64,000 bases of DNA, from NCBI GenBank assembly GCA_965222225.1, contig CBDCTK010000002.1:5312001-5376000 (forward strand). The letters run 5' to 3'. A program made the translations under genes and the position numbers. Of the stretch, positions 3,691-62,498 are shown one piece after another (position 1 is the stretch's first letter; every line of letters starts with the position of its first letter). Below the pieces are notes generated by a model. It made no database searches, had not been told where the DNA came from, and saw only the letters and a program-made list of their open reading frames with translations. The stretch is from Candidatus Poribacteria bacterium. Lineage in GTDB: Bacteria > Poribacteria > WGA-4E > JAJDTR01.

Positions 3691-3808
3691 GATCAGCTGA
3701 GATCAACCGAACGATCAACTGAGTGGATAACGAAGGCGATAGTAAATCCTACAGTGGGGGATCAAGTGAGTGGACAACGAACGCGATAGCTAATCCCGAT
3801 AGAGATCC
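3691..3808 (+). repeat. GATCAA..GCGATAG structured mini-element cluster (2 full copies, 2 partial heads)
   Basis: Full copies start at 3713 and 3760; partial heads at 3691 and 3701. Confidence 0.85.
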
Positions 3809-4001
3809 TTCTCCTGATTGCGAATTTTTGTGGTATCGGCAATCATCAAATCGCCGATTTACTCTTTTAGCAGGGAATCTTCAAGGAGTGGCAACACAAA
3901 AAAACATGGGGCAGACTTCCCTTACACGCACCGAAATTGCTATGCCATATATTTTCAAGCATACCCCTTTTTTCATTAACGGCAAAAATCGCCATCGCCA
4001 C

Positions 4002-5987
4002 CTATCCCTCCTTAAGTTCCCGCTTCAGTTCGGAAATCTGATCTCGCAGCGCCGCTGCCTGCTCAAACTCTAGCCCGGCGGCAGCCTTTTGCATCTGAGA
4101 AGTCAATTGAGTAAGCAACGCTTGGATTTCTTCGGCGCCAACATCCGCCAATGTTGGGACAGCATCAGTTGTTTCTGATTCATCAGGTTTGTCCGTTAAC
4201 TTGGTAATGAGGTCATGGATAGTTTTGTCAATCGTGGTTGGCGTGATGCCGTGTTCCTCGTTATACGCCATCTGAATCTCGCGCCGTCGGTTGGTTTCAT
4301 CAATCGCGTTCCGGATGGCATCCGTGGCTTCATCGGCATACAGCAGCACCTCTCCATCCACGTTCCGAGCGGCGCGCCCCGCAGTTTGAATGAGCGATGT
4401 TTCCGATCGAAGGAAACCCGCGCGATCCGCGTCAAGAATCGCGACAAGCGACACCTCGGGGAGATCCAAACCTTCCCGCAAGAGATTAATTCCCACGATT
4501 ACATTGAAAATACCTTCTCGAAGTTCGCGTAAAATCTGCACGCGTTCAAACGTTTCGACCTCCGAGTGAAGGTAATTTGCCTTAATCCCAGCCTCCGCAA
4601 GATAATCCGTAAGGTCTTCCGCCATGCGTTTGGTGAGTGTTGTCACAATTACGCGCTGATTCTGGGCAACACGTGCGTTGATTACACCAATCAAATGATC
4701 AATCTGCCCTTCTACCGGGTGGACGACAATCTGCGGATCTATTAAGCCCGTTGGACGAATAATCTGTTCAACCACCTGATTGCTGCTGTGCAATTCGTGT
4801 TTTCCGGGTGTGGCTGAAACGAAAATAGCTTGATTGATATAAGAGTCCAACTCTTCAAAGCGCAGCGGACGATTGTCCAGTGCAGAAGGGAGGCGAAAGC
4901 CGTAATCTACGAGGGTTTCCTTACGTGAACGGTCGCCGCGATACATTCCACGTAACTGTGGCACCGTCACATGAGATTCGTCAATGAACATTAGGTAATC
5001 ATCAGCGAAGTAGTCAATCAGACAGTACGGTGGTTGACCCGGTTCTAGACCGGAGAGGTGACGCGAGTAATTTTCGATGCCGGAACAGTAGCCGACTTCA
5101 CGCAGCATCTCAAGATCAAAGCGTGCGCGTTGCTCAATTCGCTGTGCTTCCAGCAGCTTGTTGTTTGCGACAAAGTAGTCAATTCGTTCCTGAAGTTCTG
5201 TTTCGATGTTCACCAATGCTTCGTCAAAGAGTTCCGCGTCCGTCATAAAGTGTTTGGCGGGAAAGATTTCAACGGCGTCATGTGCCGATAATATCTCCCC
5301 TGTCAGTGTATCAATCTCAGTCAGTCGATCCACCTCATCCCCGAAAAGTTCGATTCGGTAAGCAGTGTTCGCATAAGCCGGGAACACCTCAATAACGTCG
5401 CCACGGGCACGGAAATTACCCTGCAAAAATTCGACATCGTTACGCTCATACTGAATAGTGACCAGTGCCCGCAAGAGTTTCTGACGCTTAATCACCTCTC
5501 CCACTTTAACCTCAACCTTATGAAGATCGTACTCCTTCGGCGATCCGATTCCGTAGATACAGGACACGCTGGCGACAATAATGACGTCACGGCGGGAGAG
5601 CAACGACGCCGTCGAGGCGAGCCTCAGGCGGTTAATTTCTTCGTTAATCTGGATATCTTTTTCGATATAGGTATCAGTGGAAGGGATATAGGCTTCCGGC
5701 TGGTAGTAGTTGTAGTAGCTGACGAAGTAATGCACCGCGTTATTGGGAAAGAAATCTCGAAACTCGCTGTACAACTGCGCCGCAAGAGTTTTGTTCGGGG
5801 AGATGACTATCGTTGGACGCTGCATCTCGGCAATTACGTGCGCCATAGTAAAGGTCTTTCCTGAACCTGTGACCCCAAGCAGTGTCTGTAATCGGTCCCC
5901 GTTTTTCAAACCTTTGGTAAGTTGACGAATTCCCTCTGGTTGATCGCCTTGAGGCTCGTAGTCTGAAATTAACTTGAACTCTTGCAT
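4002..5987 (-). CDS. uvrB: Excinuclease ABC subunit B
   Basis: [15 protein letters not shown] beta-hairpin, [15 protein letters not shown]-terminal UVR domain. Confidence 0.98.
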
Positions 5988-6030
5988 GGTGTTTCTTGCC
6001 GGGACGTATGATAGCTCCTATGGACATTGT

Positions 6031-7068
6031 TTACGGTATATCGGATGGACTTAGACAAATCTTGCCGAAATTTTCACGCGCTTCCATTATTCGGTGTGCT
6101 TCGGCGGCTTGGTGCAGAGGCAACACGCGGTCGATTATTGGATGCAACTTTCCCTGCTCCGCGAGACGAATAATCGTGCGTAATTCCGAGGTCGTACCCA
6201 ACGCCGATCCCATAAGTGTCAACTGCTTCTGATACATCTTGCGAATGTCGATTTCACCAATGTTGCCGGTCGTTACACCGCACGAAACGAGTCGCCCCTT
6301 TTTGGCAAGACACGCGATGCTCTTGTCCCACGTCGCCGCTCCAACATGCTCAAATACGACATCAACGCCGCGGTTGCCCGTTTCTTCACGGATAGTCTCG
6401 CTGAAATCTGCCTCCGCGTAATTGATTGTAAAATCGGCGCCCAGTTGTTGCGCGCGTTGCAGTTTCTCGTCGGTGCTTGCGGTCGCAAAAACACGCGCGC
6501 CGCACAACTTGGCAATTTGTAGCCCGGCGCTGCCGACGCCGCTGCCTGCTGATAAAATCAGCACGTCCTCTCCGGGACGAACCCCGGCACGGGCCACTAG
6601 CATGTGCCACGCCGTGAGGTACGCCATCGGCATCGCAGCCGCTTCATAGTAGGAAAGATGGGGGGAGAGTAACGTTGCATTCTCGGCGGGAGCTTTGACG
6701 TATTCGGCGTACCCGCCGTTGGTTTGGAACCCAAGGAGAATCTGCGAGTCACATAAATTCTCATCGCCGTTGAGGCAGTCAACGCACTGACCGCACGGAA
6801 TGCAAGGCGATAAAACAACGCTATCCCCGACAGCTACATTATGCACCTCGGCGCCGACCTCAACCACCTCACCGGCGATATCGGAACCCAGAATATGCGG
6901 GAAAGGTTGCACCTCCGGGCGATCGCGACGTGCACGAATATCAAGGTGGTTGACGGCGCAAGCGCAGACTTTTACCACGATTTCCGACGCAGCGATAGTC
7001 GGATCCGGCACTTCCTCATAACGCAACTTACCGATTCCGCCCTGCTCGTGGAAAACGACTGCTTTCAT
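6031..7068 (-). CDS. Zinc-binding alcohol dehydrogenase / MDR-family oxidoreductase
   Basis: CIPCGQCVDC...C structural zinc site, AGSGVG, ENFGKI. Confidence 0.9.
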   Translation of the reverse strand: MKAVVFHEQGGIGKLRYEEVPDPTIAASEIVVKVCACAVNHLDIRARRDRPEVQPFPHILGSDIAGEVVEVGAEVHNVAVGDSVVLSPCIPCGQCVDCLNGDENLCDSQILLGFQTNGGYAEYVKAPAENATLLSPHLSYYEAAAMPMAYLTAWHMLVARAGVRPGEDVLILSAGSGVGSAGLQIAKLCGARVFATASTDEKLQRAQQLGADFTINYAEADFSETIREETGNRGVDVVFEHVGAATWDKSIACLAKKGRLVSCGVTTGNIGEIDIRKMYQKQLTLMGSALGTTSELRTIIRLAEQGKLHPIIDRVLPLHQAAEAHRIMEARENFGKICLSPSDIP

Positions 7069-7087
7069 GAAGGCCCTTCGCTATGCA

Positions 7088-7485: not shown

Positions 7486-10400
7486 TCACGCTTCCGACTC
7501 CGGGGTTTCGGCTGCTGCTTCATCGTGAGGGCTGCTAGACGAAGTCGCGTCTTCGGCAACTTGTTCTTGCGCCTCCGTGTCTACCTTGGAAGTCTCTTCT
7601 TCTGGAGATGGTACAACCTCAAAGGTTATCTCGTTTTCCACATGTTTGCATTTAACGAAAACGATATCTTTCTCCTGCCGATAAAGCCAGCCGGATTCAG
7701 CCGCTTCCAAATCTTCTACGCAGGGCAGATCCTGACCGAGGGCTCTCACCGCGCTTGGAATACTACCATACCCCGTGATGATAGTGTGGCTTGTTTCATT
7801 GTGTACATAACACAGTTTGAAATCCAACTTTCCGTTGCTGCCCTTGTCGCTGGTTTCTATCTGGGCTCCGCTGCTTAAGTGGATACGCCCGTTCTCATGA
7901 CGTATGATTGACGTGGAGATGTCCGGATCCTGCCCACGCAAAGTGTATAGGTTTGCCATAATGCTACCAGGGTTGATATGCGGTGGGCGTCCCTCTGTAC
8001 AGAATTCATGAAGACTGTCTGGGTATGTTCCTCTGAATTCGCCCTCCGTCCATTGCTGGTGCATACCGCTATGCGTAATGCCTTCGGCAATACCCGTCCA
8101 ATCACATCGCTGGCTATGGCGTGCAAGATGCTGCAAATGGTACGCGAAAACAAGACCACTCCGTTGTGATGCAACCCCAAACCACGCGCGAGTATCGAAG
8201 GTTGTTCCGAATATGGGAACGGAGGCGAAACGCATGGCGGGACGATCCGGCAGATTCCAGTGATAAATGAAAGCCAGCCCGGCTTTTGCCCAATATTCTG
8301 CACATGCAATATGGCGCTTATCATCGGTTATCGTGTAGGCTTCAACATACGCGCCGACAGCATTGGCTGCGGCAAGGAGATTCGGAGTCTTCGGCGGACA
8401 ATCCGACGCTTGAGCGCCGCGCGGAATTTTAAACCGGTCCATGCCCTTTAGCGCCTTTAATCCGGCGTTCAATGAGTTCTCATTCCCCGAGATTCTGGCG
8501 TGCTTTAATAGGATGAAGGCGCAATGCGCACAAATTCCTAGAACTGTGTCGTTGTCTCCTCCGAGTTCTTTCGCGCTTTCAGTTATGGGGCGGTAACGCC
8601 AACGTCCATCATCCTCCTGCGTCTCAATTAAATTCTGGGTTGTTTCTTTAAGGCGTTCTAAGCCCGCTTCGATGTTGCCGAAGTAAAACGGTAGTTCCCA
8701 GTTTAAGCTTTGGCGCTTCACTGCAGCGATCGGCCCTCCTGCCCTCGATTCGCGAACCGTGTTTCCCGCGATGGCAAGGGCGTGTTGCTTCACATCATCG
8801 TTTCGCGTTGCAAGATAGTCGTACCATAGCAGCGTTGCAATCCCTGGGAGGTTCGCTGCCGCCGAATCAACAGTTTGCTGAGGTTCACCGGTATTTTCAT
8901 TCCTCGCCTCCCGCATAATCCCGTCTCGTGAGAGCGCAAGCTGCTCCTCGTGATTCCGCAGAGATTCAAGTGGTTCAGGCGCGCCGTACGTATCGGTCCA
9001 ATGCGAGACAGCATCGGAAATAGAGGCGTTGCCGTCAATAATAATGTGTGCACTAATCGTAAGTTGTCGGTTTGCCTCCAACGTGTACGGCGTAGATGCC
9101 TCTAAGCAATTTTCCTCAACCCAGTCACCCGGTGCCGGAAGAAACAACCCCATCAGATGATTCTGATGCTTTTCATGCCAATTCGGCGAGGCAAAAACAG
9201 CGGATAGCATCGTGTGTTCGCCATCCCAAGTTTCCAATGGGTCCCATGCCAAACCAACCAGCGTTTTCTTGTACTCAACCGCCATCAGAGGAACGGTAAT
9301 CTTATAGGGATGTGGAACGAGACGGTTATTATATGGCGGTGCCGCATCTCGCGTATTTGAGGAAGGTTCATCTGTTCCTAAGAACTCCAGTCCGGGAAAA
9401 AGGGCTGCACTTTTGCCCTCCCCGTAACTACGATCGCCTGCGTGAAGCATCGGGCCATTAAAAGCGAGAATCTCCCGCCGAGCGCTGGTTGAAAGGCAGT
9501 ATTCCGTGCGCACGCGTTTGTCATCCTCGGTCAACGAAAAACGGGCCTCAAAACACCAATTCACACCGTCGGCATCCTGTTGTTCGCCAGCGAGGATAAC
9601 AGTTGACTCCCCAAAGCTATTTCCCGCGAGACGATAGATTGTGGGTATAATACGGAGTTGTTCGGTTTCGTTCTTTGAATTTCGATACCGAATCGTTGTC
9701 ATCGCATGACTTGTGGCAACTTGACGATAGCTCCCGTGTTTGGCGGCAAAAAGCGTGAAATACTCAAACCCGCGTGTACCTTGAACGAAAAGAAGTCGCA
9801 CGTGCTTGTTCCCAATCACTACATGTTCTTGGAGGTTGTATGTGTGTAATTCCGGAACTATCTGAGAAGGGACCTTCGGTGACGCCGGCTGAATTTCAAT
9901 AAAGGTTTCAAGCGTTTGCCGTACCTCGCCCATTGGCGTTTTGTACTTCAGCAAGATGGAAATCTGAGTTGCGGACTCGCGTGAAAATCTGCGGAGATTC
10001 CATACTAATTTGGTTTCGTCGCCGGCATCTAGCGTCTTAATCGGATAGACATGCCGCCCGCGGCGTAGCTTCACCTGGTTAATTGCCACACTCGTTTGAT
10101 TTGCGGGGGAGAGAGCAACCGTTCCCGTGTTACGGAGTGTGCACTGCACCTCAAAATCTTCACTCACGGTAACAATTGCCGTGTTGAGTCCTAAACTTGA
10201 TACCTCTAATTTGGGCAATTCTGTATACAGTGCCACACTGAACTCTTGGGAAGAGAGTTCGGTTGAAAACCCTCTCCTTTGAGTCTCGACAACCATGCGT
10301 TGACCGATTTCGTCGGCAATCTTGGATACAGGTGTTGGTGATTCGTAAGCAAACTCCATGGCGGATATTTTGCCGTTTGGTCCATCGGTTGATTCGTGGA

Positions 10401-11808
10401 CATGAATGCCATCCTCTCCAATCTGCTTCATATCATTGAAACTTCCGATGATGATTCCCTTTATGGCAGTTGGCTCTGTCTTGCTCTTTTCAACGGCGGA
10501 CGATGTACGGGTAAGCTTGAGGATCCGCGGATTGCCCCACAGTGCCGAATTGTTCCCGTCATCTCGACTTTCATCACACGCGGCTAGGAAGGTAACCTGA
10601 ATCTCTCTGCCGGCATGTTTCGAGACATCCATTGCGTGTTCGTTCCATTTGGGTTCGGTGGCAATTCCCTCAAAATGCCGCTCACCCGAGATTTCAATCG
10701 CGAATCGAACACCGCGTGATTTTGTCGATGGGTCGTCAGAATCAATTCCGTCCCGTAGTCCGGTACTAAAATGCAAAATTAGCGTATCTCCGGACTCTAC
10801 TTGAGGCAACGAAAGCTGATATTCGATTCGCGCAACATCCTCCTCTCGCGGCTGCTGAACTATTGCGGGCTTTGCCACGCCGCCTGCGCTATGTTGGCTA
10901 TGCGCTAAAGCCTGATCAGCGCCTTGGGCTGGACTGCTACTAGAAGCATCCGCAAAGTTGTAGATTTCGTCAATGATGCCGAATCCAAGCGGAGTTTCAA
11001 TACTGTCGGAAAAGGTCTTCTGTTCCATAGCTACGGGCTCCGACTGATCGGTTGCTGTCACCCCTGTTTCCACAGGCGATTCCGCCGCCATTGGAATGTT
11101 CGTTTCTGAAGTTTGGCTATCTATCTCTGGAACCTGGTCCGGTTGCGCGTCGGTGACATGTGAAGATGCCGCCTCATCGGCCTCAAATGACTCCGGTGCA
11201 ACGGGATTGGTCGTTTCTGACGCTTGACTGGGTATTTCGGGGGCGTCACTATCTGTTGCTACATCAGCCGGCGGCGTCTCATCGTGGTCCACCACTGCTT
11301 CATCGGTGTTTGTTGCAATATCGTCCGGAGCGTCGGCTGCCTCGTTTGCCAACTCACCGGTGATATCCGTCTCGAATTCGCTTGAAGGTAGAACGTCTTC
11401 GGCCGCCGCGTCAAGACTGTCATCTGATACATCGCGCGTCTCTAATTCAACTGAGGCTATATCTGTTGCGAAGATGCCTGCCTGTCCAACCTCAGCCGTT
11501 GCGTCTGATGCTTCTAGTTCTGTCTCGCTAGTTTCGTCGGCTACAATAGGCAATGGATTAGCGACATCAAAACGTTCCGACTGTTCATTTGCTACCTCCA
11601 AAAATCCCTCCGGTGCTTCAGCAGTCTCATTACCTAAATCTACTCTACCGTAATCGCCTGAAGTAGGATTGATTTCTTCCGCGTTTTCTGATTGGACCTG
11701 CGGTTGTTCCAATTGATTATCTTGTGCCGGTTCGTTAGTTGTGTTGTGTTGATCGTCCTCTGTTGGCTGCGTAACTAGCGATAACAACAGTTGAAAAACA
11801 GTAAGCAT
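7486..11808 (-). CDS. Large multidomain hypothetical protein (acidic disordered N-terminus, beta-sandwich domains, probable alpha/alpha-barrel C-terminus)
   Basis: 1440-aa ORF; first ~290 aa are D/E/A/T/S-rich; domain guesses come from motifs only. Confidence 0.75.
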   Translation of the reverse strand: MLTVFQLLLSLVTQPTEDDQHNTTNEPAQDNQLEQPQVQSENAEEINPTSGDYGRVDLGNETAEAPEGFLEVANEQSERFDVANPLPIVADETSETELEASDATAEVGQAGIFATDIASVELETRDVSDDSLDAAAEDVLPSSEFETDITGELANEAADAPDDIATNTDEAVVDHDETPPADVATDSDAPEIPSQASETTNPVAPESFEADEAASSHVTDAQPDQVPEIDSQTSETNIPMAAESPVETGVTATDQSEPVAMEQKTFSDSIETPLGFGIIDEIYNFADASSSSPAQGADQALAHSQHSAGGVAKPAIVQQPREEDVARIEYQLSLPQVESGDTLILHFSTGLRDGIDSDDPSTKSRGVRFAIEISGERHFEGIATEPKWNEHAMDVSKHAGREIQVTFLAACDESRDDGNNSALWGNPRILKLTRTSSAVEKSKTEPTAIKGIIIGSFNDMKQIGEDGIHVHESTDGPNGKISAMEFAYESPTPVSKIADEIGQRMVVETQRRGFSTELSSQEFSVALYTELPKLEVSSLGLNTAIVTVSEDFEVQCTLRNTGTVALSPANQTSVAINQVKLRRGRHVYPIKTLDAGDETKLVWNLRRFSRESATQISILLKYKTPMGEVRQTLETFIEIQPASPKVPSQIVPELHTYNLQEHVVIGNKHVRLLFVQGTRGFEYFTLFAAKHGSYRQVATSHAMTTIRYRNSKNETEQLRIIPTIYRLAGNSFGESTVILAGEQQDADGVNWCFEARFSLTEDDKRVRTEYCLSTSARREILAFNGPMLHAGDRSYGEGKSAALFPGLEFLGTDEPSSNTRDAAPPYNNRLVPHPYKITVPLMAVEYKKTLVGLAWDPLETWDGEHTMLSAVFASPNWHEKHQNHLMGLFLPAPGDWVEENCLEASTPYTLEANRQLTISAHIIIDGNASISDAVSHWTDTYGAPEPLESLRNHEEQLALSRDGIMREARNENTGEPQQTVDSAAANLPGIATLLWYDYLATRNDDVKQHALAIAGNTVRESRAGGPIAAVKRQSLNWELPFYFGNIEAGLERLKETTQNLIETQEDDGRWRYRPITESAKELGGDNDTVLGICAHCAFILLKHARISGNENSLNAGLKALKGMDRFKIPRGAQASDCPPKTPNLLAAANAVGAYVEAYTITDDKRHIACAEYWAKAGLAFIYHWNLPDRPAMRFASVPIFGTTFDTRAWFGVASQRSGLVFAYHLQHLARHSQRCDWTGIAEGITHSGMHQQWTEGEFRGTYPDSLHEFCTEGRPPHINPGSIMANLYTLRGQDPDISTSIIRHENGRIHLSSGAQIETSDKGSNGKLDFKLCYVHNETSHTIITGYGSIPSAVRALGQDLPCVEDLEAAESGWLYRQEKDIVFVKCKHVENEITFEVVPSPEEETSKVDTEAQEQVAEDATSSSSPHDEAAAETPESEA

Positions 11809-20539: not shown

Positions 20540-20604
20540 GATTAACCGACCGGATAGCGAATGCGACAATACTTCCATAGAGATCTCAGTGCGATAGCAA
20601 CCCC
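20540..20604 (+). repeat. GATCAA..GCGATAG mini-element (degenerate copy plus extra tail)
   Basis: GATTAACCGACCGGATAGCGAATGCGACAA...GCGATAGCAACCCC. Confidence 0.7.
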
Positions 20605-20916: not shown

Positions 20917-21196
20917 GAGCCTGTTTGAAAAGTACATTTGTAGGGTGCGCACTGCGCACCAACCTCTAAAAGCCCCAGAGTGGGATCAAGGGAGCGAATA
21001 GCGACTGCGATAGAGATCCATGAAGGTGTATAGAAACGCCAAAACCCCGTGCACCTAAGCCCCAGCGGGGATCAAACGAACGGATAGTGAGTGCGATAGC
21101 AATCCCATAGGTACGTAGCAGGCAACAATTAAGACATGGAAGAACTTCCCACAAATGACCAAAAATGGCTTTCCTATCGATTATTCAAACAGGTTC
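20917..21196. mobile_element. IS5-like MITE carrying a REP and two mini-element copies (20984, 21070)
   Basis: Terminal inverted repeats GAGCCTGTTTGAA / TTCAAACAGGTTC, flanked by TAA on both sides. Confidence 0.7.
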
Positions 21197-27679: not shown

Positions 27680-27759
27680 GATTAACTGAGCGAATAGATC
27701 AAACGACTGAACAAGGAGTGTGATAGAGATTCCGAGGCGATAGCAATCCCATAGATATC
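27680..27759 (+). repeat. GATCAA..GCGATAG mini-element, nested pair
   Basis: Inner copy at 27697 interrupts an outer copy starting at 27680. Confidence 0.8.
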
Positions 27760-39877: not shown

Positions 39878-40098
39878 GAATCTGGGAGTTTGTTTGAAAC
39901 TTTATTTTGGGTAGAGTCATTTGCCTTGAAATCAATCATGGGAATCGATAGTAATTGCGATAGAGCTCCTATAGAGATTCGGAATTAGTAGCTTGTAGCT
40001 TTTAGACTGACGACAAACATAAAACTTGGTACCCTGTCGTAAATCTTTTCGTCGCACGTAGATGTCCATAGTGACTATTCTTCTCGTAGGAGTTTGCT

Positions 40099-41228: not shown

Positions 41229-41372
41229 TAGAGATTTCCTCAAACGAGTGACTAGATCAATCGACTGAATAAAGAACACGGTAGAAATCGCGCTGTAATA
41301 GGGTTCCCATAAAAATTTTCACCAGCCTTTGAAAGGCCCTGCGTGAGATCAAGCGAGCGGATAGCGATTCCC
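41229..41372 (+). repeat. Mini-element copies (41255, 41347), continuing the repeat tract split by the IS
   Basis: Left part is GCGATAGAGCTCCTATAGAGATT at 39957-39979. Confidence 0.7.
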
Positions 41373-41514
41373 TAGGTGTATAGCAATACTAAGTCACTTC
41401 ACATCAAATTCCAGGCGGGGCGGCAAGTGTATAACAACTGAGGTAAGTGTTTGTGCCGTTTTCTTGGATAGCTCCCGCTGCCGACCCTTGGTTCCAGAGA
41501 ATAAAACAGAGGAA

Positions 41515-43133: not shown

Positions 43134-43336
43134 GATCAAAGGAGTGAATAACGACTGCGATAGGGATCTTCCATTTTACCCTGTCTTAGTAGTCTATTCT
43201 CCAGCTAGTTAATACTTACGACTGCCACAAGAGACATGTTTCGCAACCCCTACGAGCCTTTACGCATAGCCAGTTCTAATCCGTGAAATCCTTTAATCCG
43301 ATCAACTGACTGGACAAGGAAGGCGATAGGGAATCC
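43134..43336 (+). repeat. Two mini-element copies (43134-43172, 43300-43336)
   Basis: GATCAAAGGAGTGAATAACGACTGCGATAG and GATCAACTGACTGGACAAGGAAGGCGATAG. Confidence 0.85.
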
Positions 43337-47571: not shown

Positions 47572-47831
47572 GTAGGAGCGATCAAGCGACCGATTAGGGA
47601 GTGCGATAGGAATCCTCTTCAAATCGCGACCGCGATACAGCTCCCATAGAGATGGCGCCACACCGCCTGTAGGCGAGGATTGAACGAGTGAATAACGAGT
47701 GTGCGATAAAGATTCCCTCAAGTGACTTAATAGGACCAACTGAGTGAATAACGAAGGAGCAACTGACCGATAGGGGAGGCGCTAGAGTTCCCATAGAAAA
47801 TCCCACGCGATAGAAGGCCTAGGGCGATAGC
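47572..47831 (+). repeat. REP plus mini-element cluster (47580, 47678, 47734 with a nested copy)
   Basis: GTAGGAGC[GATC...]..AATCGCGAC host; several heads and tails. Confidence 0.8.
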
Positions 47832-49149: not shown

Positions 49150-49230
49150 ATGCCGAAAGACTTCGATTCCTCTTCAATTGTCACATGGCGCGCCGTGTTG
49201 ATTGGTCTCCTCTTGAATCCCGACAACAAT
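49150..49230 (+). pseudogene. 5' fragment of a membrane-protein gene
   Basis: MPKDFDSSSIVTWRAVLIGLLLNP, then the frame runs into repeat DNA. Confidence 0.4.
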
Positions 49231-49300
49231 CTCTCTCCGTTTCAACGCGGTTTTCTGCCTCTAGGTTCTATTGGCATCTATGTTAGGCGCGTGCATAATC

Positions 49301-49624
49301 GTAGGAGGATCAAAGGAATGAATAATGACTGCGATAGAACTCCCATGGAGGTCCCCACGCCCATCGGGTTGGGAGACCCAACGCCTTCGGATGCCGGTGC
49401 ATGCCTACCGATGGTTTGGGCCCTCGTCTCCCTCCAACGGATTAAGCTGTGTCTATATGCCAAAAGCACAGAGAGAACCCGTAGGAGCGGGGATCAACTG
49501 AGCGAATAGCGAAGGCGATAGAGATTTCCTCAAATGCGATCAAGCGACTGAACAAGGAGCGATCAAACGAGTGGATAGCGAGTGCGATAGAACTCCCATA
49601 GAAATCCCCTCTCCTGATCGCGAC
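49301..49624 (+). repeat. REP plus mini-element cluster (49308, 49492, 49538, 49561)
   Basis: Host GTAGGAGCG[...]CTCTCCTGATCGCGAC is split by three copies. Confidence 0.85.
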
Positions 49625-49719
49625 AGCCCATAGGTTGGGTTGAACCCCGTGAAACCTAACAATCAAGCTGTTCTCAATGACCGCCGGAATCCCGTGCCAA
49701 TGCACGTGATTCCCCATAG

Positions 49720-50910: not shown

Positions 50911-50954
50911 TCATAGGATTTGCACGGTGACAGGAGGTGACACGGTAGGCGCCG

Positions 50955-51008
50955 GTAGGAGCGATATCCCGATCGCGACTTCCTGTCGCGAGTAAAACTT
51001 GCTCTTAC
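50955..51008. repeat. REP doublet (REPIN)
   Basis: GTAGGAGCGATATCCCGATCGCGAC ... GTCGCGAGTAAAACTTGCTCTTAC. Confidence 0.7.
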
Positions 51009-51423
51009 AATTGGTTTGTCGTAACAATCTTCAATCATCAAACTGCAAAGAGAATCTTCAAGGTGAATAGCAGGAGACTACAATAACATGAAAATGCCCA
51101 ACCCCAAATTACCCAAAGTAGCTATGTCTATTATTCAAACAGACTCTAAATGGTATTTTCGCTAAGTAATTATCGTAAAACTTATACGGTTGAGCGACGT
51201 TCCCCCTTGACAAGGGGGTTGGTATGCATCTTACGTCCGATGGCTTTAGAATTACTACTGCCACTATACACTTACAATCAAGGTAATCCCAAAATCCCAT
51301 GAATCACTGTTCAGACAATGTTAGCTACCGACACTCAACACTTACCATATATTCTTAGATCGACTTTGTACATTTGTAGGATGGAATCGGCGACCATCAA
51401 TTCCCGATTTCCCCTCTTACTGA

Positions 51424-51611
51424 GATCAAGCGAACGAATAGTGAGTACGGTAGAACTCCGATAGAGTTCCCACCAGCACCGTAGGCGGGGATCAAATGAA
51501 CGAATAGCGATCAACACCGACCGGATAGTGGGGGATCAAGCGAGTGAATATCGAGTGCGATAGAACTCCCATAGACAATCCCGTGCGATATAGAGATCCC
51601 CTTGCCCCGCC
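51424..51611 (+). repeat. Mini-element cluster, including an apparent triple nest inside a GTAGGCGGGG..CTTGCCCCGCC REP
   Basis: Heads at 51424, 51490, 51509, 51534; stacked tails. Confidence 0.85.
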
Positions 51612-51667
51612 TTCGCCGCCACCACATAACGAATGCGTTAGAAAGCCTGCTGCGATAGCGATCCCCT

Positions 51668-52384
51668 TCAACGTAACGTCAGCCCACCATCAATGTATAG
51701 GACATTCCCCGTAGCATGTGGATTCCGCATCAAGTATAAAATCGTTTGAGCAACATCTTCGGCTTGAGCGATGCGCTTGGCGGGGAGTGTTTCGGCAGCA
51801 GATTCAAACATCTCGCTACGCTGTTTTCCCGGAAGTGAGTTGAATCTCGGGGTGTCGACTAACCCCGGCGAAACGACATTCACACGAATCGGCGACAACT
51901 CAACAGCCAGCGCTCGCCCCAACCCTTCAACCGCGCTGTTGATTGACGCCTGTGGCACGGCGCCCGGCTCGGGGTGTTGGCTGTATGCCCCCGCCATGAG
52001 AACAATCGAGCCGTCTTCTCGAATATTTGGTACGCCATACTTCACGGCTTGATACTGTCCCCAGAATTTGCTGTCAAACCCTCGCCGTGCGATTTCAACG
52101 TCAAGTTCTAGGAATGGCCCCAATGCACCCTCGTTTCCCGGTGTCGTTAAGTGGTCAAATTCACCGGCGATATCGAAAAGTCGCTGAATTGATCCTGAAT
52201 CTCGCACATCAACGGTGACAATGTGGACATCTTCCTGTATCCGATCTCTTGCCCGTGCTAATTTCTCCTGTGAGCGACTGGCGATGACAACCGTTGCCCC
52301 TTCTACGGTGGCGGCTTGAGCAGTCGCGAAGCCAATTCCTGAACTACCTCCGATGACAATAATCTTCTTGCCCGATAAACTCAT
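51668..52384 (-). CDS. SDR-family oxidoreductase (atypical; lacks YxxxK)
   Basis: GGSSGIG, IRVNVVSPG, IDGG. Confidence 0.9.
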   Translation of the reverse strand: MSLSGKKIIVIGGSSGIGFATAQAATVEGATVVIASRSQEKLARARDRIQEDVHIVTVDVRDSGSIQRLFDIAGEFDHLTTPGNEGALGPFLELDVEIARRGFDSKFWGQYQAVKYGVPNIREDGSIVLMAGAYSQHPEPGAVPQASINSAVEGLGRALAVELSPIRVNVVSPGLVDTPRFNSLPGKQRSEMFESAAETLPAKRIAQAEDVAQTILYLMRNPHATGNVLYIDGGLTLR

Positions 52385-55867: not shown

Positions 55868-57376
55868 TTACGGGGATTTGGCGGATATCTCCTGCACAAC
55901 CTCCTCGGCGCACCTGTTATTCAAAAGACTACCAACAATTTCTTGAGTCCCAAAATGAGGTCGATCCATCATAATCTTGTCCAGAGATGACCCATTAAGG
56001 CAAAAAATCATTGAGTTCCAACTCGCGCTGTGAATCTCGTTGGGAAACCTTTTTAGACAGGTGCCGCGGAAATAGGCGCGCGTATCCACAGGTGGATTCG
56101 TGATTGCATGGACTATTTCCTCTCGATTAACAAACCGTTTCACACGTCCATTCTTGAGCAGACGTGCATATAGCCCTTTGTCTGGTCGGATATCGTGATA
56201 CTGCAGGTCCAACATGCGGACGCGCGAATCTGACCATTTAAAACCGTGACGTTGGATATAAGCGTCAATAAGCCTCTTTTTGGTTACCCAATCTAAAACT
56301 CCATTCAGGCTCATCGGGTCTGCTTCAAGTCGATCTAACACGAACTCCCATCTCTCCATCACGTCGGTCATGGTGGGCGATGGACCGACTTCGGAAAGAT
56401 GGTCTCGTGCCAAGCCGAGATATTCACGTTGGATTTCAATTGATGTCCGCCTTCGTCCATCTTCCAAAACCAGCGGAGTTTTACACGAAAGATCGCGCGA
56501 CACTTTTTTGATGTCGGTTACGGGTTCCGAGAGTTTGAATCTGTCTCCAAGGATGCCCTTCTCAATAAGTTGGAGTGTGAGGCACGTGATTCCAACCTTC
56601 AGGTAGATGGCAAGTTCGGACATATTTGAGTCCCCCACGATGACATGTAGGCGACGGAAAAGTTTTTCATCGGCGTGCGGTTCATCACGCGTATTAATGA
56701 TTGGACGCGCTACCATCGTGCTTAATCCTATTTCCTTTTCAAAGAAATCGGCGCGTTGCGAAATCTGATAGTCGGTTTCTTCCGTACCGTTCTCGGCGCC
56801 TATCTTGCCGCTACCCGTAATAATCTGACGGGTAACCAAAAACGGAGTCAACCCGTCAACGATATCCTGAAACGGAACCGTCCGAGACATCAAATAGTTT
56901 TCATGATATCCGTAACTGTGTCCTTTATAATCTGTATTGTTTTTGTAGATAATAATCTCTTGATTGTTGGGCAAGAGTTCTTCGGCGGCAAGGCGGCTCA
57001 AATCGAGAATCAGCTCCCCCGCCTTCTCGTAGATAACGAGGTCGCGTGGATTGGTGCATTCCGGCGTGCAATATTCCGGATGCGCGTGATCGACGTAATA
57101 CCTGCCGCCATTGATCAGGATGTCATTAATCAAGCTGTTGTTTTCCCGGTCTGGCGTGTCGCTCTCGCCTTCAGACATGAAGCCTCGGGCATCCATCAGC
57201 GGGGTTTCCTGATCGTAATCCCACGTAACCCCTTTTAACTCCCGATCCTTGTAAGCGTTCACAACCAGCGTTGAAGCTGCAACGGGATCCTGGTCACGTG
57301 CATTCTTGACCGAAATGCCGTATTCGGTCTCTGTACCCATGATCATCGGTGTCGTCATAATCGGTTCGTGATTCAA
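55868..57376 (-). CDS. dop: Pup deamidase/depupylase
   Basis: MGTETEYGI, YVDHAHPEY, SQRADFFE. Confidence 0.95.
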   Translation of the reverse strand: MNHEPIMTTPMIMGTETEYGISVKNARDQDPVAASTLVVNAYKDRELKGVTWDYDQETPLMDARGFMSEGESDTPDRENNSLINDILINGGRYYVDHAHPEYCTPECTNPRDLVIYEKAGELILDLSRLAAEELLPNNQEIIIYKNNTDYKGHSYGYHENYLMSRTVPFQDIVDGLTPFLVTRQIITGSGKIGAENGTEETDYQISQRADFFEKEIGLSTMVARPIINTRDEPHADEKLFRRLHVIVGDSNMSELAIYLKVGITCLTLQLIEKGILGDRFKLSEPVTDIKKVSRDLSCKTPLVLEDGRRRTSIEIQREYLGLARDHLSEVGPSPTMTDVMERWEFVLDRLEADPMSLNGVLDWVTKKRLIDAYIQRHGFKWSDSRVRMLDLQYHDIRPDKGLYARLLKNGRVKRFVNREEIVHAITNPPVDTRAYFRGTCLKRFPNEIHSASWNSMIFCLNGSSLDKIMMDRPHFGTQEIVGSLLNNRCAEEVVQEISAKSP

Positions 57377-57406
57377 GGCGAGTCGGTCCGCGCCGTTTCC
57401 TCAAGA

Positions 57407-59218
57407 TTAAAGATAAGCGCCGCCTTTGATTACCCTCACGTCCTTCCGTTTGTTACGCTCCGATTCATTGACCAAGGCTCTGATGTTGACAATCTTCTCA
57501 CCTTTACGGCCAGAGATTTTCGCCCAATCGTCAGGATTCGTGGTGTTAGGCAAATCTTCGTTCTCCTTATATTCCTCATGGATGGCGTCCTTGAGATTTT
57601 CGAACGTTATGCCCTTTTCCTTCCCATTGGAACTAATCAGCCTTTTGATTGCCATTTTCTTCGCACGTGAAACGATGTTTTCAATCATTGCTCCGCTAAC
57701 GAAATCCTTGAAGTAAAGAACATCGCGCTCGCCGCGGGCGTAGGTCACCTCAATGAATTTATTTTCTTCGGTAGTTGCATACATCTCATCGATTGCTTGA
57801 TCGATAAGATGTTGGACTGTTTTCCCGCTATCGTTACCGAATCGTTCGAGTTCGGACGGAGCGATGGGTAAATCCGAAGCCAGATACTTGGCAAAGATAT
57901 CTTTCGCGCCTTCCGCTGTGGGGCGATCTATCTTAATCTTGATATCCAATCTCCCGGGACGCAGCACGGCTGGATCCAAAAGGTCTTGTCGATTACTAGC
58001 GCCGATGACAACCACATCCCGCAGACTCTCGACCCCGTCAATCTCGGCTAGAAATTGAGGTACCAAAGTCGATTCCATATCCGACGAGATTCCCGTACCC
58101 CTTGATCGGAAAAGAGAGTCCATCTCATCAAAGAATATAATAACGGGCACCCCTTCTTTGGATTTCTCGCTTGCTTTCTGAAAAACCTCGCGAATCTTGC
58201 GTTCTGTCTCGCCGACATACTTGTTCAGCAACTCAGGTCCCTTGATGTTAATGAAATAGCCCTTAATATCATCCCTTCCGGTTTGCTGGCGCACCCTCGC
58301 GGCTAAGCTGTTTGCAACCGCTTTGGCGATCAAAGTTTTGCCGCACCCCGGCGGACCGTAAAGTAGAATGCCTTTCGGGGGTGTCAGGGCAAACTCTTTG
58401 TATTCGTCGGGATAAATGTACGGTGTCTCTATTGCGTCGCGAATCGCTTCGATTTGCTCGTCTAATCCGCCAATATCCGAGTATCTGATGTCTGGCACAG
58501 TTTCGAGCAAGAGATCTTCCACTTCGGTTTTGGGGAGTTTTTCCATAATCATCCCCGTACCTTGATTCAGTAGGACATTATCGCCGAGTTTCAACTTTTC
58601 AGCCTTAAGTGGTTCGGAAATCTCTACGACGCGCTCCTCATCGGCGCGAAGGCTAACAATCGTACGAGATTCATCAAGCACTTCCTTGACTTTAACGACT
58701 TCCCCACGCTGGTCAAACTCTCGAATCCCCACGACATTTAAAACACCGTTGACAATTACCTCCTGCCCCTTTTTAAGTTCATCGACGTTGATATCCGGAT
58801 CGGACTTGACTTTCCATCTTTTACCGCCAAGATCAATATCAATGGTGTCATCATCATTTACGCCAAGAAAAACACCGTAGTTGTTGGGTGGAGCGCTTAG
58901 TTGTTCCACCTTCTCCTTCAGGTGCTCAAGTTTCTCTTTCGCCTCTTGAAGTGTACTCGTCAGTTTCCGATTCCGCCGATGGGCTTGCATCAATTCGCGG
59001 GTCATTTCGTAGAGACGAACGTCTGCATCGTCGGAGGGAGCAGCGTTAAGACGCCTTCTCAAGTCATCGTTCTCGTTTTCCAAAGATTCGATCATGAACT
59101 CCATTTCACGAATCTGTTTCTGATTATAGGATTTGCGATCCGATGAACTTGCTGTTGGCTTAGATTCATCCCGGATTTCTTCAAATGGCCCTACGGTGTC
59201 TCTTTTCTTGATGGACAT
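57407..59218 (-). CDS. arc: Proteasome-associated AAA ATPase (ARC/Mpa)
   Basis: N-terminal coiled coil, GPPGCGKT, LPNTTNPDDWA.ISG.KGE, HbYX-type tail GAYL. Confidence 0.96.
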   Translation of the reverse strand: MSIKKRDTVGPFEEIRDESKPTASSSDRKSYNQKQIREMEFMIESLENENDDLRRRLNAAPSDDADVRLYEMTRELMQAHRRNRKLTSTLQEAKEKLEHLKEKVEQLSAPPNNYGVFLGVNDDDTIDIDLGGKRWKVKSDPDINVDELKKGQEVIVNGVLNVVGIREFDQRGEVVKVKEVLDESRTIVSLRADEERVVEISEPLKAEKLKLGDNVLLNQGTGMIMEKLPKTEVEDLLLETVPDIRYSDIGGLDEQIEAIRDAIETPYIYPDEYKEFALTPPKGILLYGPPGCGKTLIAKAVANSLAARVRQQTGRDDIKGYFINIKGPELLNKYVGETERKIREVFQKASEKSKEGVPVIIFFDEMDSLFRSRGTGISSDMESTLVPQFLAEIDGVESLRDVVVIGASNRQDLLDPAVLRPGRLDIKIKIDRPTAEGAKDIFAKYLASDLPIAPSELERFGNDSGKTVQHLIDQAIDEMYATTEENKFIEVTYARGERDVLYFKDFVSGAMIENIVSRAKKMAIKRLISSNGKEKGITFENLKDAIHEEYKENEDLPNTTNPDDWAKISGRKGEKIVNIRALVNESERNKRKDVRVIKGGAYL

Positions 59219-60569: not shown

Positions 60570-60861
60570 AACTCGACTTTGTACAAACGTACAACAGTTG
60601 GGTTGAGCGGAAAGCCGTACAGCACCAAATCCGTAGGCGGGAATCAAGGGAGTGAATAACGACCGCGATAGAGATCTCCTTGCCCCGCCGTGCAGCATCA
60701 AGATTCAAGCGAAATCCAACACGTTCTGCATGGTAGCAGAAACCACTGCCGACTTTTTCAATGGTCAACCAACAAGACCAGATGGTTAAAATCTCTTCCA
60801 CTTTTCTTCAACGCTTGATTGACACCATCTGTTATCCCGCTTAAATGTACAAAGTCGAGCT
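60570..60861. mobile_element. MITE with CTCGACTTTGTACA inverted ends, carrying a REP plus a mini-element (60642-60678)
   Basis: CTCGACTTTGTACA / TGTACAAAGTCGAG; another left end at ~51357. Confidence 0.65.
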
Positions 60862-60863
60862 AA

Positions 60864-61098
60864 AAACTTGTTTGAAAATTAATTCGTAGCAACACCATTT
60901 GCTCTGAAACCAAGTTTTTCATCAGCGCTCATGTAGGTGCACACCGCGATCAAGGCAACGAGCATCAACTGCGATTGAGATTCTACCAGCCTTTGCCCCG
61001 TGGATTATACTCTTTTGGAGCGAACTCCAGCTCGCGAAAAAACTCGCTCAACGCAAATGACCAAAGATAGCTTCGCCATCTATTATTCAAACAAGCTC
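60864..61098. mobile_element. IS5-like MITE (same family as 20917-21196) carrying a degenerate mini-element (60948)
   Basis: CTTGTTTGAA / TTCAAACAAGCTC ends, TAA flanks, shared CAAATGACCAAA subterminal sequence. Confidence 0.65.
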
Positions 61099-61127
61099 TA
61101 AGCCGCTGAAAGTGCCTAATAATTGTG

Positions 61128-61778
61128 CTATGTTGTAGAACGACTGTTGAAACAGCAAGTTTCTAAGGGAGTGTAAACTGCCCCGCTTTGTCGAAGGTGG
61201 CTTTGGACAACTCGGATCTCATTGACGACCATGGTGGCGCCATTGATTGTATCATATTGTTGGAACACGTCAACGAGAGGTTTCAAATCAATTCGATGTT
61301 TGAGCCGGGAAAGAGTTAAATGTGGACTGGACGGCTTCTCATCACGCTCATATCCATGGCGACTTAGTCCTATATCGATTTCTCTGGCAATGGCAATGAT
61401 CTCATCTGCGCCGGTTTTCACGCCTGCCCAAATAATCCTTGGACGAGTCAAGTTTGGGAAGGCGCCAATACCCCCTATCTCCATTGAAAAAGGTGACCGA
61501 GTATCCGCCACCTGTTCAATCGCATTTTTGATTACGCTAATTTGATTTGGGGCGACATCTCCAAGGAATTTCAAGGTCAGATGAATGTTTCCGCGCTTTA
61601 CCCATGAGGCTCCGCGGATGTCCTTCCTGAGTTCCTCCTGAGCGGAAGTTAGCAGCGTCTGAATCGCTTCGGGAATCTCAATTTCGACAAAGCACCGTAT
61701 CTGTTCTTGGTTCACACTTTCTATGGGGATTTGGTTCGGGTTCAAGCCAACGGACTGCTTGATTTTCAACCTGACCAA
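61128..61778 (-). CDS. thpR: RNA 2',3'-cyclic phosphodiesterase (2H family); real start probably GTG ~61715
   Basis: HLTLKFLG and PHLTL motifs. Confidence 0.92.
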   Translation of the reverse strand: MVRLKIKQSVGLNPNQIPIESVNQEQIRCFVEIEIPEAIQTLLTSAQEELRKDIRGASWVKRGNIHLTLKFLGDVAPNQISVIKNAIEQVADTRSPFSMEIGGIGAFPNLTRPRIIWAGVKTGADEIIAIAREIDIGLSRHGYERDEKPSSPHLTLSRLKHRIDLKPLVDVFQQYDTINGATMVVNEIRVVQSHLRQSGAVYTPLETCCFNSRSTT

Positions 61779-61780
61779 GG

Positions 61781-62386
61781 TTAAAAATCATCTCCCGAAT
61801 CAAAGAGATCAGTTGATCGCATCACGGAATACAGCGCTTTGCGATTCCCGTACACAAACTCTAATCCCGATATCACAGTTAGGACAAGAGGTGCGTACAT
61901 CATGAAATAGATCGGCCTAAACTGTTCAATCCATTCATCCCCCACTCCATGCCCATGGAACACTAGCAGAATCAGGCTCATGAAGATAACAACCATCTGC
62001 GAGGTAGCCTTATATTTTCCCCACTTGTTCGCTGCAACAACAGAACCCTGTGTGGCGACAAAAAGCACCCGCAACCCTGTCACAACCAATTCGCGTCCCA
62101 TGATTGTTAGAACCATCCAGCCTGGGATAAGTTTTTCACCGAACAGGCAGATGAGTGCTGCGCCCACTAGCAACTTGTCCGCAAGCGAGTCAACAAATTT
62201 GCCGAAACTCGTTACCCCGTGTTTGCGAGCAATTCGCCCATCAAGGAGATCGGTTAATGCCGCCACTCCAAAAATAATTGCGGGCAGCAAACGGTAATAT
62301 CGAAAAGAAATCATGAGTGGAGGAATCATCAAGATGCGCGAAACCGTCAAACCGTTCGCCAAATGTTGGAGCGTGCGAAAGTACAT
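61781..62386 (-). CDS. pgsA: CDP-diacylglycerol--glycerol-3-phosphate 3-phosphatidyltransferase
   Basis: TDLLDGRIAR....T.FGKFVD..ADK. Confidence 0.92.
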   Translation of the reverse strand: MYFRTLQHLANGLTVSRILMIPPLMISFRYYRLLPAIIFGVAALTDLLDGRIARKHGVTSFGKFVDSLADKLLVGAALICLFGEKLIPGWMVLTIMGRELVVTGLRVLFVATQGSVVAANKWGKYKATSQMVVIFMSLILLVFHGHGVGDEWIEQFRPIYFMMYAPLVLTVISGLEFVYGNRKALYSVMRSTDLFDSGDDF

Positions 62387-62442
62387 CGTTCAATCACTTA
62401 TCCATCAAGGCAATCGTACCTGATTCTAAACTAGGCACTCTT

Positions 62443-62498
62443 GTAGGGTGCGCACTGCGATCAAGGGAGTGAGTAGCGACCAGGATAGAGATCCCACC
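62443..62498 (+). repeat. REP hairpin split by one mini-element (62459-62493)
   Basis: GTAGGGTGCGCACTGC[GATC...GATC]CCACC versus the intact REPs at 3643 and 20940. Confidence 0.85.

Follow-up and report, generated by a model that had tools for sequence, protein, structure and literature searches.

How a short sequence can be scattered between the genes of a bacterium, change its bases from copy to copy and keep a single fold is the question raised by a 64-kb stretch of Candidatus Poribacteria DNA, referred to here as the window (C2:5312001-5376000 of the 5.70-Mb genome G000, which comprises two contigs). A first-pass annotation of the window described a dispersed element of 35-47 nt with a GATCAA head, the variable bases of which covary and preserve a hairpin containing tandem G.A pairs. 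The results presented below suggest that the element is a non-autonomous mobile DNA module of approximately 36 nt, of a REP/IS200-like kind (REP, repetitive extragenic palindrome), moved as a single strand and acted on in trans. This is the explanation that we favour, with slightly more than even confidence.

Stem covariation and predicted fold

The consensus GATCAA-NN-GA-NN-GRAYA-NN-GA-NN-GCGATAG, allowing up to three mismatches, gave 17 matches in the window, all on the + strand, and none in 100 dinucleotide-preserving shuffles of the window. A covariance model was built from 128 copies (115 loci of other assemblies in addition to 13 window copies) and run on the window with filters off. It matched 23 times at E ≤ 1, 17 of these at E < 0.001; every match was on the + strand, and the - strand gave no match. 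The model recovered 22 of the 23 heads listed in the first-pass annotation; the remaining one, at 49538, is truncated and belongs to the outer copy of a nested pair, and one weak additional match was found at 39928-39973. A regular-expression scan of the genome identified 1,087 copies, comprising 556 exact matches and 303, 139 and 89 copies with one, two and three mismatches, respectively. The chromosome carried 597 copies on the + strand and 487 on the - strand, and three copies were located on a 63-kb contig.

Covariation was analysed in the 859 copies with at most one mismatch, which represent 446 distinct 30-nt cores, numbered from G1 of GATCAA. Pair 7-23 was formed in 410 of the 446 cores against a shuffled expectation of 231 ± 9, pair 8-22 in 404 (expectation 247 ± 7), pair 11-19 in 421 (215 ± 9) and pair 12-18 in 425 (357 ± 5). 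Three or four pair types were in use at each stem pair, and all four pairs were formed in 338 of the cores. When mutual information was calculated for all column pairs between positions -20 and +60, only the four stem pairs stood out (1.23, 1.06, 0.83 and 0.47 bit), and the remaining column pairs, which were adjacent columns, reached at most 0.44 bit. The same scan revealed no covariation in a fixed register for an outer flank stem (GGGAT/ATCCC) or for complementarity between tail and target. The cross-species alignment of 128 copies behaved in the same manner: 93.4% of the cells were paired compared to 61.1 ± 1.5% after shuffling, a level reached by none of 500 shuffles, and 230 cells had changed on both sides compared to 36 ± 6 in the shuffles. 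Sliding the partner by one to three columns, as a control, left 22-58% of the cells paired. The covariation proposed from the window copies is therefore confirmed within the genome as well as across species, and the proposal that structure rather than sequence is maintained holds at the four stem pairs.

The positions between the paired blocks were near-invariant and non-Watson-Crick, with G9.A21 retained in 415 of the 446 cores, A10.G20 in 430 and G13.A17 in 429, which agrees with the near-invariance of GA...GA and of the GRAYA loop noted at first pass; core positions were at least 97% invariant among the genome copies. Certain combinations never occurred. An A was never found just 5' of GA, a T was never found just 3' of GA, and the loop-closing pair was always Y-R. 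The context Y-GA-R favours sheared tandem G.A pairs, and the pattern of forbidden pairs fits this context.

The mismatched cells further indicated which strand folds. Among the 446 cores, 219 cells were G.T or T.G and 37 were A.C or C.A, a ratio of approximately 6:1. As A.C and C.A cells are what the G.T wobbles of the opposite strand would look like, the large excess of G.T wobbles implies that one defined strand folds. The earlier suggestion that something recognises a folded single strand is borne out as far as the single folding strand is concerned; recognition itself we only infer, no protein having been identified.

Folding was calculated with RNA parameters, which credit tandem G.A loops. 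Nine of the ten window cores tested shared one minimum-energy structure,.(((..((..((.....))..))..))).., with an ensemble frequency of 0.76-0.89. According to this shared fold, the invariant ATC (positions 2-4) and GAT (26-28) form a third helix, and AA/GC forms a further 2x2 loop. The top strand is thus predicted to fold into a 27-nt hairpin with the Watson-Crick blocks ATC/GAT, ab/b'a' and cd/d'c'. In the model, these blocks are set apart by invariant purine-purine 2x2 loops (AA/GC and tandem G.A/A.G) and capped by a pentaloop closed by G...A.

Ends of the unit and its insertion sites

The ends of the unit were located by comparing each copy, together with its 120-nt flanks, with the rest of the genome, and an empty paralogue was obtained for 117 of the 1,087 copies. 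Homology on the left stopped at G1 or at the preceding base in 68 of the 117 filled/empty pairs, and homology on the right restarted after position 37 in 46 of them. The net insert measured 33-36 nt in 65 pairs and 65-70 nt in a further 15, the latter being consistent with double nests. At the empty sites the junction held 0-4 other bases, mostly C, CA, CG or CAT, and target duplication was absent. These homology edges place the unit between A2 and C37 (~36 nt), with the leading G belonging to the target, so that the unit appears to read 5'-ATCAA ab GA cd GRAYA d'c' GA b'a' GCGAT AG ARATCC(C)-3'. The element described at first pass therefore stands, with its length corrected to ~36 nt and the G of its GATCAA head assigned to the target rather than to the element.

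The unit was always located directly 3' of a G. The target is otherwise loose, as the last three bases preceding the 1,087 copies were GGG in 245, GCG in 244, AGG in 112, ACG in 95 and CCG in 75, with others in the remainder, and the junctions are known from paralogues only. The main host is a REP-like family, GTAG-GGTG(C/G)GCA-C-TG(C/G)CCACC, which has 322 GTAGGGTGSG sites genome-wide; the unit occupies GTAG-GGTGCG^CA^CTGCGCACC (carets mark the junctions) and also cuts in at CACTGCG^C^ACC. Another host is GTAGGCGGGG^CAT^CTTGCCCCGCC, and GCCCCAGnGGGG^C-GACAGGTG is occupied at its 3' foot. The element also serves as its own host, in 124 of the 1,087 copies, after the G that follows its own 3' stem. 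This self-insertion accounts for head-head-tail-tail patterns and for repeated ATAG-NNN-TCCC tails, for instance at 49538-49609 of the window; the stacked heads and tails in the first-pass annotation derive from such nesting of copies. The ends were equally sharp when the unit lay in the element itself and in each of five or more unrelated host contexts, and 634 of the 1,087 copies lay outside the host contexts as defined.

The unit had a preferred orientation relative to its hosts. GTAG was present within 16 nt upstream in 243 copies compared to CTAC in 24, and CCCAG.G was present upstream in 82 copies compared to its reverse complement in one, which indicates that insertion is strand-specific relative to asymmetric hosts. 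Neighbouring copies within 250 nt of each other were direct in 260 cases and inverted in 69. Identical alleles were distributed over different surroundings, with one core of 16 copies found in 12 different 5' contexts and another of 14 copies in 12. The commonest allele was concentrated in one context, shared by 27 of its 45 copies, from which it follows that hosts also amplify together with their insert.

Orientation relative to genes and GC skew

The 1,084 chromosomal copies were predominantly intergenic, with 887 outside and 197 inside crude open reading frames, which cover 82% of the chromosome, and 606 of the 4,070 intergenic regions carried at least one copy. Between co-directional genes, 308 copies were in sense and 259 in antisense orientation. 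Occupancy was alike among the types of intergenic region, at 13-18% (convergent 103/579, divergent 95/588, tandem similar), and all 23 window copies lay on the + strand while the neighbouring genes switch strand twice. Orientation is thus independent of gene direction, which points to folded single-stranded DNA rather than to an mRNA element.

Orientation was coherent over tens of kb. The copies formed 355 strand runs compared to 538 ± 16 expected, or 197 compared to 284 ± 12 when counted by intergenic region. In 100-kb bins, orientation correlated with GC skew (Spearman -0.55, p 8e-6) and not with gene strand (-0.08). A corrected skew was then calculated from genic sequence only, as the mean of the two coding strands; in 50-kb bins, positive corrected skew was associated with 152 '+' and 298 '-' copies and negative corrected skew with 404 '+' and 159 '-' copies (Spearman -0.55, p 1e-8). 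In ~69% of copies, the G-rich folding strand is accordingly found on the C-rich strand. The GTAG hairpins that act as hosts share this bias at 74-76%, the GTAG strand of the GTAGGGTGSG family lying on the C-rich strand in 76%.

In the usual polarity the leading strand has more G than C. The location of dnaA at 2.61 Mb, where the skew switches from negative to positive, agrees with this polarity. The single large-subunit rRNA match (G000:C2:1075-4095, - strand) lies on the same strand as 13 local copies and hints at the opposite polarity. Gene-strand bias was unrelated to the corrected skew and is uninformative in this respect. As the single rRNA operon is on the strand that the corrected GC skew would call lagging, the replication polarity is in need of independent mapping.

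Occurrence across genomes and turnover between species

A scan of one genome per species with the exact pattern returned at least 104 stretches, and 77 of the 80 matches listed were 'Candidatus Poribacteria bacterium' records. The three other listed matches were in an Omnitrophota record (L018), a Bryobacterales record (L087) and a metagenome-assembled genome labelled 'uncultured Clostridium sp.' (L038). The first two were rejected as true copies outside Poribacteria, since their stems are unpaired and they are chance matches. The third (L038:3608-3653, - strand) is a perfect, fully paired copy on an 11-kb contig that probably belongs to Poribacteria and was mis-binned.

Among 41 relatives, the exact pattern was present in 15. 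It occurred in 402-937 copies in all ten genomes of the window's genus, in 133-155 copies in all four genomes of a genus from another family (g4), and in two copies in the sister genus; it was absent from the 26 other relatives, and a reversed control pattern gave no match in any genome. The covariance model was further applied to 151 Poribacteria genomes from 22 genera and matched in 17. These comprised the two carrier genera, the sister genus (four matches), two genomes with one match each and one genome with 22, the genus of which had no match in its other 18 sampled genomes; in the largest Poribacteria family, none of 100 genomes matched. Matches were essentially confined to two genera. 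The element was also present in assembled Logan contigs from 20 public runs belonging to seven studies, and in both short-read and long-read assemblies of different projects. Given its presence in independently assembled relatives and in public runs, the element is not an assembly artefact, a possibility that the first-pass annotation had left for checking.

Orthologous sites differed between species. A hairpin located downstream of a Y1 gene (the L001 type described in the next section) was filled with the unit in G000, G001 and G005, and the same hairpin was empty (CACCTGTC-GCCCCnCTGGGGC) in G002, G009, G004, G012 and four genomes of genus g6. The orthologous copies beside this gene differed as G7.T23 versus A7-T23, a single step in a change by way of a wobble pair. 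Copy number and allele also varied between species in the intergenic region that precedes the gene at 43571, where no copy was present in G005 and G003; a nucleotide-level orthologous empty site was sought here and abandoned, as the intergenic regions are too diverged. Judged by these sites, copies appear to be gained or lost between species.

Candidate enzymes and mobile genes

Y1 transposases (PF01797) gave five matches in this genome. The family was found in 137 of the 151 Poribacteria genomes and is therefore too close to ubiquitous in the phylum to discriminate carriers. The L001 type is an intact 157-aa IS200-like gene (NF033573, 65.8 bits), for example at G000:C2:3080258-3080728, with the motif YIKNQEAHH. 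This motif corresponds to 'subclass 1.2' of PMC6006769, the table of which lists no associated REP for it. In this genome, copies of the element lie on both sides of the gene. In genera g1, g4 and g6, a different repeat, GCCCCAGnGGGGC-GACAGGTG(TATAG...), borders the gene on both sides in inverted orientation and in some cases forms tandem arrays. The GCCCCAGnGGGGC-GACAGGTG repeats and the L001-type gene make up a REPtron-like arrangement, and the 36-nt copies beside the gene are secondary insertions into the GCCCCAGnGGGGC-GACAGGTG repeat.

The other Y1 loci were less complete. The L002 type is a 247-aa RAYT-like gene, full length in two species only and fragmentary in a third, with no element copies within 3 kb. 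The L004 type (L004:1134-1779) is a RAYT-like Y1 gene split here over two overlapping frames, an apparent frameshift, with unbroken frames of 221-235 aa in four relatives and a patchy distribution. The L003 and L005 matches are fragments. Among the Y1 loci examined, no gene was flanked by the 36-nt element as its own repeat.

An insertion sequence of the IS1595 family (~1.25 kb, with a 284-aa DDE transposase) has two copies in the window, at 39979-41230 and 47881-49152. It has 46 near-full copies genome-wide, most of those tallied being at least 99.76% identical, and this near-identity points to a recent burst. IS1595 was rejected as the driver or target of the hairpin unit: it encodes a DDE transposase, none of its 46 copies is interrupted by the unit, and a hairpin copy lies near its end in only 7 of the 46.

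Comparison with known systems

No Rfam 15 family matched at the gathering score in the whole window, and none matched at E ≤ 1 in the stretch 49150-51700. A literature search on repetitive extragenic or intergenic hairpin elements of Poribacteria found no paper on this repeat. The first-pass annotation did not recognise the element as a REP, a CRISPR repeat, an attC site or a known RNA family. This holds with respect to Rfam, and it does not extend to an unprecedented kind of element, as REPs with comparable traits have been described (see below).

IS608 and ISDra2 recognise single-stranded DNA hairpins and insert strand-specifically 3' of a short target without duplication, in an orientation coupled to replication. 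The present element resembles the IS200/IS605 family in its folding hairpin strand, and, going by junctions with paralogues, may share with it strand-specific insertion directly 3' of a short target without duplication and a coupling of orientation to replication. It differs in having one hairpin in 36 nt, rather than separate left and right ends, a loose SG^ target and no resident tnpA that carries the element as its ends. A further difference from IS608, provided that the skew has its usual polarity, is the enrichment of the folding strand on the C-rich strand. The attC sites likewise conserve structure rather than sequence, are recognised as one folded strand and depend on orientation relative to replication. 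Unlike them, the element described here forms no cassette array, has no regular gene-by-gene spacing, measures 36 nt and is nested in other repeats.

The likeness to REPs is closer. REPs are short (20-40 nt) intergenic hairpin repeats present in hundreds of copies, and the element has 1,087 copies, most of which, as noted, are outside reading frames. Within REP families, sub-families differ in stem residues that remain complementary (PMC3733652), and the element uses three to four pair types at each stem pair. PMC3733652 also describes a REP family whose stem conserves an unpaired G-A, and REPs that lie inside other small palindromes. PMC3116915 describes compensatory changes in the hairpins of REPINs. 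The mobilisation of REPs as single-stranded DNA is ascribed to Y1 enzymes (PMC3733652, PMC3116915 and PMC6006769). In contrast to REPs, the 36-nt unit has no GTAG/CGTC tag; it starts with ATCAA and ends with ATCC(C), and GTAG belongs to its hosts. Its helix consists of 2-3 bp blocks between invariant purine-purine loops, whereas a REP stem has 6-9 bp. A REPIN consists of two inverted REPs, whereas neighbouring copies of this unit are mostly direct, and in contrast to a REPtron the element flanks no Y1 gene as its own repeat. The lack of a tag, of inverted doublets and of a flanked Y1 gene makes the element a REP-like variant and not a member of the REP, REPIN or REPtron classes.

Apparently closest in size and behaviour are the small dispersed repeats (SDRs) of Nostocaceae, very small repeat modules described as mobile (PMC4390886 and PMC5861425). 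SDR5 is reported to insert precisely after the GCG of GCG^ATCGC (HIP1; PMC4390886), and 244 of the 1,087 copies here follow GCG^ with a unit that starts with ATC. The SDRs are said to be absent outside Nostocaceae (PMC5861425), and the element belongs to another phylum in which HIP1 is not enriched. Membership in the cyanobacterial SDR5/HIP1 system was rejected, as HIP1 (GCGATCGC) has 117 sites compared to 86 expected and the carriers are Candidatus Poribacteria.

Compared with these systems, the architecture of 2-bp blocks and 2x2 loops, a 'G.A zipper', is new. The restriction to two Poribacteria genera and a strand bias that is common to the whole REP-like repertoire of the genome are also new. 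If the mobile-module reading holds, a 36-nt unit capable of independent insertion, both into itself and into other hairpin repeats, would be new as well.

Proposed mechanism and alternative explanations

A non-autonomous, shape-recognised element of single-stranded DNA best explains the sharp ends, the absence of duplication, the position 3' of G, the one-sided host orientation and the nesting. The same reading best explains the occurrence of identical alleles in many contexts, the turnover between species, the fold of one strand and the independence from transcription. Under this explanation, the element would move, or would have moved, as single-stranded DNA. An enzyme supplied in trans would read its shape and cut at two points, the 5' hairpin foot and a site 9 nt beyond the hairpin on the 3' side; the enzyme would most plausibly be an HUH/Y1 protein, either IS200-like or RAYT-like, a family of which the genome has members. 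REP-RAYT and IS200/IS605 would be the nearest models of the mechanism. Exposed loops and feet of other REP-type hairpins would be the favoured landing sites. Mutated copies would be mobilisable only if pairing was kept or restored, which would generate the diversity of the stem, and G.T intermediates would be tolerated on the active strand. A bolder form of this explanation, which we consider possible and hold tentatively, is that of a self-contained 36-nt 'nano-transposon', relying on G.A-zippered single-stranded hairpin recognition only. Such a unit would be a hyperparasite in the loops and feet of REP hairpins, mobilised in trans either by a Y1/HUH enzyme that belongs to the invaded repeats or by an enzyme class new to transposition, with a strand preference that is the reverse of that of IS200/IS605.

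Several results weigh against a mobile module. No cognate binding or cleaving enzyme was identified among the candidate genes, and a search of this genome for TnpB genes found none. The L001-type gene was rejected as a specific partner, as its own flanking repeat differs and its distribution is mismatched with that of the element: it is present in all seven genomes of a genus without the exact pattern, and was not found in two of the four g4 genomes, which bear 133-154 copies. The L002 and L004 RAYT-like genes were rejected as the cognate enzyme on account of their patchy distribution. The absence of the unit from all 46 near-identical IS1595 copies gives no sign of very recent hairpin activity. 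The empty sites are mostly paralogues with junction differences of 0-4 nt, which leaves the cut sites uncertain by about 2 nt, and the stacks of truncated heads without matching tails are not explained. Folding with DNA nearest-neighbour parameters formed the hairpin in one of nine flanked copies, with z-scores of -1.4 to +1.2. The fold is thus marginal without non-canonical pairs, and this would suit recognition of the structure by a protein more than simple stability of the hairpin.

The strand preference also raises difficulties. The location of the folding strand on the C-rich strand is the opposite of the IS608 rule, if the usual skew polarity holds. When the association with skew was re-examined in 60 sampled 20-kb stretches per genome, it was recovered in the positive control G000 (31/62 versus 68/20). 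It was weaker in the sibling G001 (41/97 versus 72/77, Fisher 0.0016, with a Spearman coefficient of -0.17 that was not significant) and there was no association in G012 of the second genus, g4 (21/22 versus 13/14). Three-point smoothing abolished the skew signal in all three genomes, including the control.

Three alternatives were considered. The copies could be a cis-acting DNA element that serves the host, such as a polar signal like KOPS or Chi or a site bound by a protein of replication, repair or the nucleoid, kept by selection, with the bias reflecting a function in replication. The tracking of GC skew, the strand runs over tens of kb, the near-invariance of the core, the persistence of the element in genomes without a detected L001-type gene and the bias shared by the REP-like host families (74-76%) would all suit such a function. 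The element is, however, patchy, as it occurs in 17 of 151 Poribacteria genomes and essentially two genera, which argues against a core cellular function; copies lie within other copies and are cut short, the species differ at orthologous sites, and the bias is only about 69% and was not clearly reproduced in genus g4. We consider this explanation unlikely. To a similar degree improbable is that the element does not move alone and is a variable module of larger composite intergenic repeats, its presence or absence arising by recombination, slippage or gene conversion. Many copies do lie within larger repeat units of 100-150 nt, and the host amplification seen with the commonest allele, the 0-4 nt variation at empty-paralogue junctions and the unmatched truncated heads would follow from such a history. 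It does not account for ends that are identically sharp in no fewer than five unrelated types of host and in the element itself, for identical alleles in 12 different contexts, for the 634 copies outside defined hosts or for the one-sided orientation relative to the hosts.

An RNA element appears less likely again. In this explanation, the tandem sheared G.A pairs and the GNRA-like pentaloop would be bound by a protein or influence the stability of a transcript, and the DNA copies would have arisen through an RNA intermediate. The high RNA-parameter fold frequency in nine of ten cores and the tolerance of G.U-type wobbles on one strand only would agree with it, and metatranscriptome contigs span element-bearing stretches, for example 49563-50996, although these may be DNA carry-over. 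Against it, the orientation is near-random relative to co-directional genes, all 23 window copies lie on the + strand whatever the strand of the neighbouring gene, and no type of intergenic region is preferred. There was no Rfam match even at E ≤ 1, and a search for reverse transcriptases gave only one weak match. The mobile single-stranded DNA module remains the explanation that we prefer.

Copies and other features in the window

The copies described in this section are all on the + strand. The first is a full copy, consisting of the target G and the 36-nt unit, at 3713..3749 (no mismatches; 56.2 bits, E 7.9e-10), and sequence inspection placed two truncated heads just before it, at 3691-3712. 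A second full copy at 3760..3796 (no mismatches; E 3.5e-9) is followed by a second tail, GATAGAGATCC. Close by, at 3643..3663 (+ strand), inspection revealed a member of the main host family that carries no insert, a REP-like hairpin reading GTAG-GGTGGGCA-C-TGCCCACC; the family was counted genome-wide. A degenerate copy with three mismatches occupies 20540..20576 (E 4.7e-4), and two full copies that match the consensus are inserted after CCCCAGAGTGG^G at 20984..21020 (E 2.8e-10) and after CCCCAGCGGG^G at 21070..21106 (E 1.5e-10). A further full copy is located at 27697..27733 (one mismatch; E 3.1e-8).

The match at 39928..39973 is weak and degenerate (18.4 bits, E 0.078). A degenerate copy at 41255..41291 (two mismatches; E 0.12) adjoins the right end of an IS1595 copy, and a truncated copy at 41341..41374 (E 0.021) retains only the head and loop. 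Full copies were found by both the consensus and the covariance model at 43134..43170, which is intergenic and upstream of a gene for a 1292-aa peptidyl-prolyl isomerase, at 43300..43336, and at 47580..47616 after GTAGGAGC^G. They are followed by a degenerate copy with an indel at 47672..47719 (E 5.3e-5) and by a degenerate or nested remnant at 47751..47795 (E 0.023), where the head at 47734 from the first-pass list forms part of a stack.

Both methods also identified full copies at 49308..49344, after GTAGGAG^G, and at 49492..49528. In the nested pair at 49538..49609, the outer copy contributes the head (49538-49561) and the tail ATAGAAATCCC(C) (49598-49609), and an inner full unit (49562-49597) lies between them. 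The GCGATAG of the outer copy is without its CG, and the same architecture was present in the filled/empty pair e261. A copy with two mismatches lies at 51424..51460 (E 2.3e-6) and a stack of truncated heads at 51484..51520 (E 0.46). The full copy at 51534..51570 (consensus and covariance model) is followed by two more tails, which are remnants of outer copies. At 60642..60678, a full copy found in the same two ways lies in the loop of a GTAGGCGGG...CTTGCCCC hairpin. Contigs from four public runs join 60641 to 60679 with GCAT between them; these contigs probably derive from empty paralogous host repeats and are no demonstration of polymorphism. The last two are a weak degenerate match at 60942..60987 (E 0.42) and a degenerate copy at 62459..62495 (three mismatches; E 4.9e-5), located after GTAGGGTGCGCACTGC^G in a GCACTGCG^ context.

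Distinct from the 36-nt unit are further intergenic repeats of ~100-145 nt, at 51261-51360, 41515-41658 and 49139-49609 of the window, which recur with 75-92% identity at many sites in sibling genomes. The window also encodes Mfd, UvrB, a Pup ligase, a proteasomal ATPase and a sigma-54 activator (2047-3453). The Pup ligase and the proteasomal AAA ATPase are side by side (55868-59218, - strand) and represent a pupylation-proteasome cluster. An open reading frame of 1440 aa (7486-11808, - strand) had no Pfam match at E ≤ 0.001.

Implications

Such elements can fill a sizeable share of the intergenic sequence and can confound both assembly and annotation. If the mobile-module reading is correct, the element would count as one of the smallest DNA units for which independent insertion has been shown. 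The approximately 1,000 natural variants in each genome would then map which positions of the hairpin must pair and which stay G.A, and would provide a ready-made specificity map for a structure-reading DNA enzyme, as is relevant for HUH tags and single-strand DNA tools. If the elements serve the host instead, they would constitute a new polar signal of the chromosome. As mobile modules, they would represent repeats that parasitise other repeats in an uncultivated phylum of sponge symbionts.

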